Source of the DNA: Candidatus Bathyarchaeota archaeon
GTDB lineage: Archaea > Thermoproteota > Bathyarchaeia > Bathyarchaeales > Bathycorpusculaceae
DNA length: 64,000 nt
Assembly (NCBI GenBank): GCA_963806535.1
Contig: CAWDYC010000005.1
Location: 1 to 64,000, forward strand
Reading direction: 5' to 3'
A program made the position numbers and the translations under genes. Positions within the stretch are counted from its first letter, which is position 1; the number at the start of each line of letters is the position of its first letter. The notes beneath the pieces were generated by a model. The model had not been told where the DNA came from, searched no databases, and saw only the letters and a list, made by a program, of their open reading frames with translations. Positions 25,438 to 29,543 of this stretch are shown here, one piece after another.

Positions 25438-26513
25438 ATGAGTGAGAAGCAGCGTTTCATCTTCCATTTAGATATGGATCATTTCTACACTGCTGTTGAG
25501 GAGCGGGAGACACCCAGAAATCCGGGGCAAACCTGTCATTGTCGGCGCTGACCCAAAAGGGGGCAAAGGCAGAGGCGTCGTCAGCACAAGCAATTACATA
25601 GCCAGAAAAGTTGGCGTTCGCTCAGGCATGCCCATTTCACAAGCTTGGCGGCTGTGTCCAGAAGCAGTTTATTTGCCGCCGAATTTTCCTCTCTACATTA
25701 AGGTTTCAGAAGAAATCATGGAAATCGCCCGCAAATATGCGGACAAGTTTGAGCAGTGGGGAATTGATGAAGCTTTTTTGGATGTAACAAGCAAAGTTAA
25801 GGATTATGTTGAAGCGGAGGCTTTAGCTCGGCAGATTAAGCAGGAGATTAAAGAGAAGGAAAATCTAACTTGCTCTATTGGTGTGGGTCCGAACAAGCTT
25901 GTGGCTAAGGTTGCCAGCGATTTTCAGAAACCTGACGGCTTAACAGTTGTCCGAGATGAGGAAGTGGAAGTGTTTCTTGCGCCTTTGCCTGTGCGGAAGC
26001 TGCTTGTGGGTTGGACGTAAAACTGAGGCTAAACTAAAAGAGTTAGGTGTAAACACCATCGGCGACTTGGCAAAGTATGATGCTTCAGCGTTGACTTCGA
26101 TGTTTGGCGTGATGGGTTGGCAGATGCATTTGATGGCAAGGGGCATTGACAGCAGCGAAGTTGAAGAGCGTGTTGGCGTTAAAAGTGTAAGCCACGAAAC
26201 CACCTTTGAAGAAGACACCGCTGATCCCTCTGTGATTTTGCAGGCGTTAAATGACCTTTGCGTTGACGTTCAAAAAGAAACTGAAAACCAAAACCTGCTC
26301 TTCAAAACTGTTACATTGAAAATTCGTTTTGAACATTTTGAAACCCACACCAAAGCCAAAACCTTGCCCTTCTTAACCAACCGTCTCTATGACCTGCAAA
26401 AAACCGCAAAAGAACTCCTTACTCCTTACTTGCATAAAAACCGAAAAGTCAGGCTTATCGGCGTTAGAGTTTCAAGTTTGGTTTCGATGGAAAAACAGAA
26501 GACGCTGCTTTAA
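25438..26513 (+). CDS. dinB: DNA polymerase IV (Y-family DinB/Dpo4); two frameshifts
   Basis: HLDMDHFYTAVE, GVRSGMP, GIDEAFLD, NKLVAKVASDFQKPDG, VRLIGVRVS. Confidence 0.9.
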
Positions 26514-27062
26514 GGCTCTTCGACTTTTTGTGGAACTAAAGGTTTGCCAAAGGTTTCTTCGCTGGCAACTTCGCTGAGAGTTTTTCTTGAACGCATAAGA
26601 TGCAGAACTTTGCTTGATAAATCCAGTTTTTCACGTGAATAGCCAACTGCTAAAAGTACCAGAACTTCAAAGTTTTCAGGAACCTTTAAGCACTTCTTTG
26701 ACTTCTTTCTCGTCGAAGCTTCCCACGCAGCAGGTTCCTAATCCTTCGCTTACGGCGGTTAAAATCATGTTTTCTACGGCTAAGGCAACGTCGATGGCGT
26801 ACCAGTCAGGAGAGGCTTTTTTGTCTCCACAAGCAACAATGACCAGTGGGGATTGAGCAAGAAACTTTGCGTATATGCCCTTTGAGAGGATTTTTCTTTT
26901 TTCTTCATCAGTTACTGCGATAAAATGCCATGGTTCAATGTTTTTTGCTGAAGGTGCAAGTCGTCCAGCTTCCAAAATCTTCTCCAGTTTTTCTCTTGGA
27001 ACAGGTTTATCTTGGTAGGCGCGGATTGATCTTCTTTCCTGTACAGCTTCAAAAACATCCAT
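26510..27062 (-). CDS. Nitroreductase family protein; frameshift near 26680
   Basis: RRSIRAY, APSAKNIEPWHF, LTAVSEGLGTC, LAVGY in a shifted frame. Confidence 0.85.
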
Positions 27063-27449
27063 AACTGTTTGCTCCTTAGATAGAATTGGATTTTTCGTGT
27101 ATATTAGCTTATCAGAGTTCGGAAATTTTTGAAATTCAAAAAACTCGTCCATTTTAGCTAAAACACTCTTCTGAATGTCTTATGCTTTTAGGAGTTTGCA
27201 AATTATAGCCTAACCTTGCAATTGCTGCCGATTTGTTTGAGGTTCACTCAGAAAAGAAGAACAACAACAGTTGGTGGTAGCACTGGGTGTTGTTTTTCTC
27301 TGATAGAAGAAGTAGGATGGCTGGAAATAGCACACATCCTACTTCTTCTCTGCTTCAAAAGAAGAAGAAAACCTGTGGGAGCACTCTTCTTCTTTGATGC
27401 GTGTTGGCAGGTGATACTGAATAGTCTTTTAAAAATAGGCAACGGAAAA

Positions 27450-28112
27450 TTATGCTTCGTATTTCGTTGGGTCTGGTATGCGTGCTTCTTGGAAGGCTTT
27501 TTTGCGGTTTACGCAGGATTCGCATTTGCCGCAGTGCTTCTGGGCGTCGCGATAGCATGACCAGGTAAACTCGAAGGGGACGCCAAGTTCAGCTCCTGTC
27601 TTGATGACTTCGGATTTGCGTTTGCCGCTGAACGGCGCTTGAATGCTGATGTGTTCGCCTGTGCCTAGCTGCGCTGCTTTCTCGAATGCCTCGTAGAATT
27701 CACGTCTGCAGTCGGGATAGAAGGGTTCGTCTGAGCCATGTGCGCCATAAAAAATCTTGTCAGCTCCAACCGAAACCGCGTAAGAAACTGCTACTGAGAG
27801 GAAAATTGCATTTCTGAATGGAACGATTATGGGTTGGCTGAACTCAGCGGTTAGGGGGATGTTGGTGTTGCAGAGCGAGGTTACGTCGCCGAAGACTTCT
27901 TTCAAGGCTGAGAGGTCAACGATTTTTGTTTTGGTGCCAAGGCTTTCTGCGATTTTTTGTGCTGACGCGGTTTCTTTTACGGCGATTTGTCCATAATTGA
28001 AAGTTATAGGGTACAGCTCATATCCTTCTTTTTTTGCCCAGTAAGCTACAACGGCTGAGTCGGGTCCTCCGCTTAGAACTACTACGCATTCCGGTTTTTG
28101 TTTTTGTGTCAT
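27450..28112 (-). CDS. queC: 7-cyano-7-deazaguanine (preQ0) synthase
   Basis: LSGGPDS, FNYGQ, VPFRN, YPDCR, TWSCY..HCGKCESC..R. Confidence 0.95.
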   Translation of the reverse strand: MTQKQKPECVVVLSGGPDSAVVAYWAKKEGYELYPITFNYGQIAVKETASAQKIAESLGTKTKIVDLSALKEVFGDVTSLCNTNIPLTAEFSQPIIVPFRNAIFLSVAVSYAVSVGADKIFYGAHGSDEPFYPDCRREFYEAFEKAAQLGTGEHISIQAPFSGKRKSEVIKTGAELGVPFEFTWSCYRDAQKHCGKCESCVNRKKAFQEARIPDPTKYEA

Positions 28113-28134: not shown

Positions 28135-28653
28135 TCAAATTCCTAACTTTTCTCTTAATTTGGAAACCATTTTTGGAACACAGCGTTTCTTTTCAGTAAT
28201 TTGAATAGTGGCCATCCGATGAGCACAGTTGCAACTAACATTTCCAATGATTACATAGGCTATGCTAAACGGTAGAGGTATATTGAAGGGGGCGGATAGC
28301 ATCCATCCGACAGTTATGCCTAAAACAACTGAGTAAGCGGCGCAACTTCCAATAACGGTATAGTCATTTTTGGTCCGTTTGTAAATGTAGTAGACTACAA
28401 AAGACATTGCAAAAGAAGGTATTGTGTTTAGTAAGTCGATTGGACCAAGCGGTGAATATAAATTGCCTACAAATACTCCAAGTGTGTGCCCCAAGACTCC
28501 AGGTAATCCCAGCAAAGGAACTGCAGCAACCATCGAATCTGCAATTCGGACTTGAACAGGCCCAAAAGAGATGCCTCCGAGGACAATAACAAGGGCTGCA
28601 TAAAGCGCAGCATACATGGCGATTAAAGCTAAATCTTTAGTTTTTAGTTTCAA
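28135..28653 (-). CDS. queT: QueT-family queuosine/preQ precursor transporter
   Basis: AALYAAL..ISFGPVQVRIAD..G.FVGN..SPLG; directly upstream of queC. Confidence 0.85.
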   Translation of the reverse strand: MKLKTKDLALIAMYAALYAALVIVLGGISFGPVQVRIADSMVAAVPLLGLPGVLGHTLGVFVGNLYSPLGPIDLLNTIPSFAMSFVVYYIYKRTKNDYTVIGSCAAYSVVLGITVGWMLSAPFNIPLPFSIAYVIIGNVSCNCAHRMATIQITEKKRCVPKMVSKLREKLGI

Positions 28654-28659
28654 AGTTTA

Positions 28660-28732
28660 ATTTGCCTCCCTATCCCGGGTTTTATTTACGTTGGCGGAAC
28701 GGGTAGGAGACCAAACTCACCCGCCAATTGCA
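28660..28732 (-). promoter_or_regulatory. Candidate preQ0/preQ1-sensing riboswitch in the queT-queC leader
   Basis: TTGGCGG/CCGCCAA stem, A-rich tail TAAATAAAAC, 3' CCGGGATAGGGAGG able to pair back into the loop and containing the SD. Confidence 0.55.
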
Positions 28733-28897
28733 GTTTTGAAACTTCAGAGTTGCCTAAATACATTTAGGAAAATTTTTTGGTTTTTAGTAACGTGGAGTTG
28801 GGATGCGAAATATTAATAAATCTCTTGGAAAGATTACATGTTGCTACTTCCTAGTGGATGGCATTCCGCGAAACGAAGTTTTAGGGAGCATAAAACT

Positions 28898-29543
28898 ATG
28901 TCACAAAATAATTCAGCTAGTCAACTAGTCCTTAAAGGAACAACTACAATTGGCGTCGTCTGTAAAGATGGCGTAATCTTGGCTTCTGATACCCGAGTAA
29001 CTATGGGTTACTATGTTGCTCATAAAGCGGGTAAAAAAGTGTACAAAATCGACGATCACATCGGCATGACAATTGCTGGAACAGTGGCAGATGCCCAAAG
29101 AGTCGTAGATATTCTTACAGCTAACGCAGCTCTCTACAAAATCAACATGAATCGACCAATGCCACTAAGTTCAGCGGCACGATTGGTTGCTAACTTGCTG
29201 TTTTCAGCACGCTACATACCATTGGCAACTCAAGTTCTTGTCGGCGGCGTAGATGACACTGGACCACACGTTTACAATTTAGATCCATATGGAAGCTTGA
29301 ATGAGGAAAAAATCGGTTTCAACCGGCTCTGGTTCACCAGTTGCCTATGGTATTCTTGAGGACAAATATCGTGAAGGCATGACGATTGCCGAATTGCTCC
29401 CAACTATAGCTAAAGCGGTTAACGCGGCTATGAAACGTGATGTTGCAAGCGGCAATAGCTACAATATAATTGTTATCGACAGCAATGGCTATCGCGAATT
29501 ATCAGCCGAAGAAAAAGACAAAGTCCTCAAAGCAGGAAGTTAA
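28898..29543 (+). CDS. psmB: Proteasome beta subunit; frameshift near 29310
   Basis: LKG/TTTIG propeptide cleavage site, AGTVADAQ, TGSGS, KRDVASG. Confidence 0.95.

Follow-up and report, generated by a model that had tools for sequence, protein, structure and literature searches.

The locus lies in a window of 64,000 nucleotides from a Candidatus Bathyarchaeota archaeon (the whole stretch of DNA that was analysed), in which two minus-strand genes stand one behind the other: queT (28135..28653, 172 aa, TTG start) and, 22 nt after it, queC (27450..28112, 220 aa). The first-pass annotation had assigned these names from the open reading frames, and the assignments are upheld by family-database matches. 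The queT product matches QueT (PF06177) with an E-value of 5.8e-20 and 72.5 bits (cut-off 33.7), and the queC product matches Pfam QueC at 9.6e-64 and NCBIfam TIGR00364 at 2.8e-58, with 196.8 bits against a cut-off of 150.3. Elsewhere the genome encodes QueD, a TGT of archaeal type and size, and, counting the gene described here, two QueC genes, and the preQ0/archaeosine pathway is therefore present. The second QueC gene (2.0e-38) and a second, distant QueT-like gene (E 7.8e-9) are about 2 kb apart on contig C3 (L309, G000:C3:186500-191500), and no structured leader of the kind described below was seen in the ~230 nt upstream of that QueT-like gene. Further genes in the window include a nitroreductase-family gene (26676-27152, minus strand; Pfam 7.7e-32) 297 nt downstream of queC on the same strand, and, on the opposite strand, a proteasome-subunit gene (28838-29543, plus strand) that is divided between the ORF 28838-29359 (Pfam Proteasome, 1e-41) and an ORF in another frame that overlaps it (29301-29543), a split that may reflect a frameshift or an assembly error. 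Another pair of overlapping plus-strand ORFs (25496-26020 and 25947-26513, together spanning 25496-26513) looks like what we take to be a single frameshift-split DinB/Y-family DNA polymerase.

On the minus strand from 28760 to 28651, the leader of queT reads TATTTA, about 28 nt, UUGGCGG, GUGAG, UUUG, GUCUCCUAC, CCG, UU and CCGCCAA, and continues with CGUAAAUAAAA, CCCGGG, AUA, GGGAGG, 11 nt and the UUG start. The letters are identical to those first reported for it, as is the gap of 11 nt between GGGAGG and the TTG codon at 28653-28651. The conserved RNA element as a whole occupies 28664..28728 (minus strand, as for all of its parts), where it is matched by a covariance model, R1, with 81.6 bits and an E-value of 1.7e-19. 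Its outer stem, P1, pairs UUGGCGG (28721..28727) with CCGCCAA (28691..28697). The loop closed by P1 contains, from 5' to 3', the conserved junction J1 (GUGAG, 28716..28720), which looks like a Shine-Dalgarno (SD) sequence; an anti-SD stretch with which J1 is able to pair (GUCUCCUAC, 28703..28711; CCUCC(C)AC in most relatives); the triplet CCG (28700..28702), proposed as the 5' strand of a short pseudoknot helix; and L2, the UU directly 5' of the P1 3' strand (28698..28699), as defined by a parse of 163 sequences. Beyond P1 follow L3 (CGUAAAUAAAA, 28680..28690), which accords with the A-rich segment originally noted after the stem and is an A-rich linker of variable length among relatives; CCCGG (28675..28679), consisting of an invariant C run and the CGG (28675-28677) proposed as the 3' strand of the pseudoknot helix; and the SD sequence GGGAGG (28665..28670), 11 nt before the start codon and complementary to the anti-SD stretch.

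The TATA-like box TATTTA, read from the sequence at 28755..28760 (minus strand), had been pointed out in the first-pass annotation, and comparison of 162 aligned upstream regions lends weight to it: hexamers resembling a TATA box are most frequent between 36 and 29 nt upstream of the first G of P1, where they follow an A-rich stretch. A box at so constant a distance would put the element at the 5' end of the mRNA. With the usual archaeal spacing between TATA box and start site, transcription would begin a few nucleotides before P1, probably about 4-7 nt upstream of it.

The same leader, behind a box of the TTTTTA type, was found at the QueT orthologues of 25 species of the same genus, and R1 was built from these 25 leader sequences. 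The search of its own 2.9-Mb genome with R1 gives a single match, at 28664-28728. Across the order, 113 of 151 genomes contain a match at E <= 1e-3 and 126 of 151 at E <= 1, with 12 of 12 families represented; in the class the element was detected in 84 of 151 genomes at E <= 0.01, and in an even draw from the phylum in 28 of 151 genomes, 15 of which lie outside the class. The matches outside the class come from three or four families (f44, 9/15; f56, 3/3; f60, 2/2; and f51, 1/7, a weak match). A single match in the genome, together with matches in most related genomes, thus makes the element more than a chance resemblance. A loose pattern scan of all species genomes produced mostly chance matches in GC-rich bacteria, and among the matches listed R1 confirms 2 of 80, both in Bathyarchaeia, so that the scan carries little weight for occurrence beyond the phylum. 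Within what was searched, the sequence matches indicate that the element is confirmed only in archaea of one phylum. A diverged version is present in another genome (L026 1897-1967, minus strand; G045), in which P1 is AGCGG/CCGCU, CUCCC and AUAAACCCC are retained, and AAAA takes the place of CGG directly before GGGAGG. R1 misses this version (the best E-value in the G045 genome is 0.468), and more remote variants therefore exist.

In total, 165 copies were collected (167 alignment rows minus two weak ones), comprising 163 distinct sequences. Element length varies from 55 to 75 nt because the P1 loop holds an inserted segment of 8-30 nt that includes the anti-SD stretch. QueT lies directly downstream of the element in 160 of the 165 copies. 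Pfam QueT was found in 123 of the 137 first downstream ORFs submitted, and most of the 14 Pfam-negative ones were wrong ORF picks; of the 21 loci left over (the 14 Pfam-negative loci and 7 without an ORF call), 15 have QueT immediately downstream by tblastn, as do 22 of 22 loci outside the Pfam submission. In 55 of 163 loci, some of them outside the class, queT is followed by a same-strand queC. The exceptions to QueT are one copy at a contig end and four copies before an unclassified membrane protein. This protein, which replaces QueT behind the element in four genomes, all of one family, is 229-234 aa long, hydrophobic and multi-pass (L247 1569-2270; L254 1569-2270; L257 808-1494, minus strand; L274 266-961). 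It matched no Pfam or NCBIfam family, and compared with QueT it gave a weak N-terminal profile match only (hhalign probability 79%); it is a candidate new 7-deazaguanine transporter. The distribution of R1 matches, the gene context and the covariation described below together sustain the original proposal of a conserved structured leader in front of queT and often queC.

The secondary structure was assessed in the 163 distinct sequences, which were parsed with a regular expression by their invariant blocks, independently of the fitted alignments. P1 is backed by compensatory changes. The claimed 7-bp stem UUGGCGG/CCGCCAA is present at the locus, and its five G/C pairs are the part conserved among relatives: from 4-37 to 8-33, each core pair forms in 156-163 of the 163 sequences, with G-C/C-G, A-U and U-A exchanges. 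Pair 8-33 is G-C in 143 sequences and C-G in the other 20, and is never unpaired; pair 4-37 is G-C in 128, A-U in 11, U-A in 9, G-U in 8 and unpaired in 7; and pairs 5-36 and 6-35 show one further standard variant each. Mapped onto a FastTree phylogeny of 141 QueT proteins, these changes correspond to at least 5 state switches at pair 8-33 and at least 23 at pair 4-37, so that the covariation anticipated for the outer stem is found repeatedly on the tree. In alignment A4, 94.6% of the cells of P1, the inner helix and CCG:CGG are paired and 6 pairs have changes on both sides, counts that use hand-set columns, the stored A4 structure being one column out of register at the P1 3' strand (50% pairing). 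The A4 covariation score is 0.139, compared with 0.076 +/- 0.004 for shuffles (none of 500 attains the A4 value) and 0.011-0.042 when partners are slid; because the model used to fit A3 and A4 already included P1 and the inner helix, both alignments favour those pairs. A result that counts against the fold is that RNAalifold applied to A4 did not recover P1 and returned a weak alternative (-2.07 kcal/mol), although the pairs of that alternative have no changes on both sides. A mutual-information screen of the sequences for further tertiary pairs gave nothing convincing. The folding energy of the single sequence from the locus is unremarkable (z = -0.62; 52 of 200 shuffles fold equally well), and in its minimum-energy fold the partner of the CUCC/CCCG region is the GGGAGG/CGGG region.

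Conservation outside the stem is concentrated in short blocks. J1 is GUGAG in 134 of the 163 sequences, GUAGG in 21, GUGGG in 5, GUGG in 2 and GUAAG in 1; L2 is UU in 159, AUU in 3 and CU in 1; and CCGUU is found in 158. The block AAACCC or AAUCCC occurs in all 163, preceded by an L3 part of 4 to 15 nt in the same parse. Two pairings put forward in the first-pass annotation do not survive this comparison. The inner CGGGU/ACCCG hairpin is rejected because it would set position 8, a C in 20 of the 163 sequences, against the leading C of the CCG triplet, and that C is invariant (163 of 163). The UUCCG:CGGGA pairing fails because it needs the P1 3' strand, whose C33 co-varies with G8 instead.

The remaining pairing of that proposal, CUCCUA with UAGGGAG, which would sequester the SD, is supported along two lines. 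CCUCC(C)AC inside the P1 loop is complementary to the SD region GU(N)GGGAGG, and predicted duplexes of the 12 nt upstream of CCG with the 22 nt downstream of CGG have a native mean of -13.1 kcal/mol; when tails were swapped among the 161 sequences, the mean was -11.4 +/- 0.16 kcal/mol and none of 200 permutations reached the native value, and shuffled tails gave a mean of -7.8 kcal/mol. The anti-SD stretch also co-varies with the SD downstream. Lineages with an unusual SD have a matched anti-SD, as in UCUCU/AGAGA (L040), GUCUC/GAGAC (L012), CCUUCC/GGAAGG (L271, L287, L295), CCCUC/GAGGG (L282, L285) and UCCGAC/GUCGGA (L300, L308). When the third C of the anti-SD was set against the third G of the SD over 14 phylogenetically independent branch pairs, the two changed together in 8.9, oppositely in 0.3 and remained unchanged in 4.8 (median p 0.004).

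The same anti-SD stretch has a second potential partner within the loop. The SD-like J1 (GUGAG/GUAGG) pairs with the CUC..AC stretch in 98% of A4 cells, in an alignment fitted to that pairing, and in 128 of 161 sequences the hairpin favoured by thermodynamic folding is a neighbouring one, GUGGG/CCCAC, with the anti-SD stretch spread over its predicted loop and 3' strand. Under either pairing, the local hairpin is predicted to compete with SD sequestration. The predicted means are far apart, at -17.3 kcal/mol for the SD-sequestering duplex including CCG:CGG versus -4.6 kcal/mol for the local hairpin, and this modelled gap in stability counts against a simple two-state picture; on these predictions the leader may be constitutively closed, or the switching polarity may be the opposite of the one preferred here. 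The great stability of the sequestering duplex is also what could be expected of a constitutive structured leader that senses nothing and acts through mRNA stability, fixed translational attenuation or a response to temperature. Such an attenuator, however, has no need of unpaired CCGUU, AAAnCCCGG and GU kept invariant across a phylum, nor would it be expected to be tied exclusively to one transporter family, which makes a leader without sensing very improbable.

The CCG triplet is able to pair with CGG (28675-28677) in 96.6% of A4 cells, and the pairing shows no covariation because both strands are almost invariant. CGG follows the C run in 161 of 163 sequences, and CCG:CGG is broken in L251 (CGA) and L277 (CGU). 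A fourth pair, between the base before CCG and the base after CGG, was considered and rejected as inconsistent: a C at this flanking position stands opposite A in 67 sequences, opposite G in 41 and opposite U in 24, although a U there is opposite A in 20 of 20. The proposed CCG:CGG helix would make an H-type pseudoknot with P1, and indirect support for it comes from a smaller element (described below) that has a different P1 and no insert and keeps the loop CCG, an A-run and CC(C)GG. If the pseudoknot forms, every conserved unpaired nucleotide (G9 and U10, U31 and U32, the end of the A-run and the C run) would meet at the helix junction. In preQ1-I riboswitches the ligand site is a junction of this type, according to a review (PMC11625349).

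Existing riboswitch models miss the leader, as had been suspected. A scan with Rfam 15 of a 451-nt region (window 28500-28950) and 9 related loci at E <= 10 matched no family, preQ1-I, -II and -III included. For preQ1-I (RF00522, gathering score 39 bits), a genome-wide search gave no match at the locus at E <= 1, and the sole genome match at that threshold, which scores 21.6 bits and lies on a different contig, was discarded because it falls on a tRNA 3' end. The models for preQ1-II (RF01054, gathering score 47 bits) and preQ1-III (RF02680, gathering score 63 bits) matched neither the locus nor the 9 related loci, and genome-wide searches with them gave nothing at the locus. RF00522 and RF01054 each scored over the cut-off in 1 of 14 control genomes; RF02680 did so in 0 of 14, so its negative result stands with no positive control.

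Comparison with the known classes was made from sequence and published descriptions. The element resembles preQ1-I, as described in the review, in standing before genes of the queT/queC type and in having a 5-bp P1, an A-rich linker and a tail able to pair into the loop (PMC11625349); the candidate P2 here would likewise give an H-type pseudoknot adjoining the ribosome-binding site. It differs in the 8-30 nt loop insert with its anti-SD, in the apparent sequestration of the whole SD by a separate long-range helix, and in its archaeal occurrence, the review listing bacterial phyla only and never using the word archaea (PMC11625349). In preQ1-I the 3' strand of P1 is by definition preceded by UC or AC, and this C pairs with the ligand (PMC11625349). 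That specificity cytosine is absent here: L2 is UU, and the next base, C33, is Watson-Crick paired with G8. For this reason, and with no match to RF00522, the sequences argue that the element is not simply a preQ1-I riboswitch with an enlarged loop, as the first-pass annotation had supposed.

A smaller second leader bears on the same question. It reads GGUAG UUUCCGUAUAUAAC CUACC UUAAAAAACC(C)GG and precedes a divergent QueT paralog (identity ~37%) in six species belonging to the genus and in a single species from a sister genus (L029 1454-1492; L030 1454-1492; L311-L314; and L318, G104:C58:15607-15647). It is rare, with 1 of 151 genomes in the class sample, and has the textbook preQ1-I layout, with no insert, UU following the 5' strand of P1 and AC preceding its 3' strand, although RF00522 scores no match on it and an Rfam scan of the L029 leader gave no relevant family. 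One genome, G030, has both the large element and the smaller leader, before two different QueT paralogs. It could be argued that the large element is itself a highly diverged preQ1-I homologue with a hairpin inserted in loop L1, and so a known class rather than a new one, since the order of parts is the same (a 5-bp P1, a short segment of the loop able to pair with the 3' tail, an A-rich L3 and the ribosome-binding site right behind it) and the smaller, insert-less element in the genus shares CCG, an A-run and CC(C)GG. Against such descent stand the failure of RF00522 to match either the locus or the smaller element, an L2 of UU lacking the specificity C, a C33 that is base-paired, and an element length of 55-75 nt, and it is very unlikely.

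The other two preQ1 classes offer functional rather than structural parallels. Like preQ1-III (RF02680), the element lies upstream of queT and has an anti-SD, in or near an internal hairpin loop, with which the SD downstream can pair (PMC11602147). This arrangement is by analogy similar in its working and does not amount to proof of membership; the element measures ~60 nt as opposed to ~100 nt, and, judged from the sequences against the published description, it lacks the U-rich strands required for the U-A-U triples of classes II and III (PMC11602147). The element shares with preQ1-II (RF01054) its position upstream of queT, and its proposed pseudoknot with an embedded hairpin and its predicted translational control through full sequestration of the SD would be further common ground (PMC11625349). 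The preQ1-II fold is an HLout pseudoknot with helices P1-P4, in which P3, formed by the SD, lies immediately beneath the pocket (PMC11625349); in the present element the SD pairs fully with a strand upstream of it. The order of helices is different, the hairpin here preceding the pseudoknot strand inside the P1 loop, and preQ1-II is reported there only from Bacillota (PMC11625349). Like the TPP and fluoride riboswitches of archaea, the element is a cis-acting leader in an archaeon, with metabolite sensing presumed in the present case; unlike those classes, which are shared with bacteria (PMC5473149), it is confirmed only in one archaeal phylum. A literature search of the main texts of openly available papers found no description of an archaeal preQ0/preQ1 riboswitch, and the main text of a 2026 preprint clustering intergenic sequences contains no mention of preQ, queuosine or deazaguanine.

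Taken together, the covarying stem, the covarying SD-sequestering helix and the tie to queT indicate, on comparative grounds, that the leader element is a real cis-regulatory RNA. The features by which riboswitches are generally recognized were found in it, namely a conserved structured leader, covariation, genes of one pathway and an expression platform. Conserved unpaired nucleotides, covarying stems and an occluded SD also occur in leaders to which a protein or some other macromolecule binds, and control of queT translation by, for example, a tRNA-guanine transglycosylase-like enzyme or another RNA-binding regulator would produce a similar pattern. Across families, however, the neighbours of the element are QueT only, joined by QueC at one locus in three; a compact pseudoknot whose linker is A-rich, before a component of a vitamin-type transporter, is a classic riboswitch setting; and in bacteria queT is already controlled by three riboswitch classes (PMC11625349). 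Regulation through a bound macromolecule is clearly unlikely in this light, and the element is probably a translational OFF riboswitch for preQ0 or a close 7-deazaguanine, belonging to a structural class not yet described. Both the ligand and the OFF direction are deduced entirely from gene context and architecture.

As a translational OFF riboswitch for preQ0, the RNA would occupy the first ~65-75 nt of the queT(-queC) mRNA. In the proposed fold, a 5-bp GC-rich P1 (GGCGG/CCGCC) would enclose the insert with the anti-SD CCUCC(C)AC, followed by CCG and UU, and 3' of P1 would come the A-rich linker, the invariant CCCGG and the SD within GU(N)GGGAGG. In the ON state, the anti-SD stretch would be held in a local hairpin with the 5' GUGAG/GUGGG segment, leaving the SD free. 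In the OFF state, the 3' tail would dock, with CCG pairing to CGG and CCUCC(C)AC to the SD region, and these helices together with P1 would form an H-type pseudoknot in which the A-rich linker runs alongside P1. The ligand, a 7-deazaguanine base and most probably preQ0 in an archaeosine-making archaeon, would be bound at the junction of P1 and the pseudoknot and would stabilize the OFF state, blocking translation of the transporter and of QueC. That U stands where preQ1-I has its ligand-pairing C counts against this scheme, which gives no account of how a guanine-like face would be recognized.

The composition of the operon also leaves some room for a genuine riboswitch with a different ligand, such as the substrate of QueC (7-carboxy-7-deazaguanine), archaeosine base, preQ1 or queuine supplied by neighbouring bacteria, or some purine that pairs through another face. 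A queT-queC operon is present in 55 of 163 loci, and importing preQ0 itself would make QueC needless, so the transported compound could be a precursor of preQ0. The U at the position of the preQ1-I specificity C, as that position is described in the review (PMC11625349), points the same way, and the presence of both elements at two QueT paralogs in G030 would fit two ligands. Yet sensing of the end product is the usual logic, preQ0 is the free end product in archaea (PMC5372724), and no data favour any alternative compound; a ligand other than preQ0 is fairly unlikely. With preQ0 as the preferred ligand, it is an even call whether the element represents the first archaea-only riboswitch class and a fourth structural way of sensing 7-deazaguanines, one that senses preQ0 without the preQ1-I cytosine and governs salvage in most Bathyarchaeia and some other Thermoproteota.

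To our knowledge, very few riboswitches are known in archaea, and an abundant element confirmed only in archaea would change this picture. The preQ1 family is a model for the recognition of one ligand by different RNA folds, to which a structurally distinct aptamer would be added if the proposal is true, and a compact switch from uncultivated archaea, in which translation would be under ligand control, could serve as a genetic tool. The element also flags the unclassified ~230-aa membrane protein as a candidate transporter of the same compounds. If the proposal holds, regulation of the supply of the archaeosine precursor becomes directly testable, and the strict link to QueT implies that 7-deazaguanine salvage matters ecologically to these sediment archaea.
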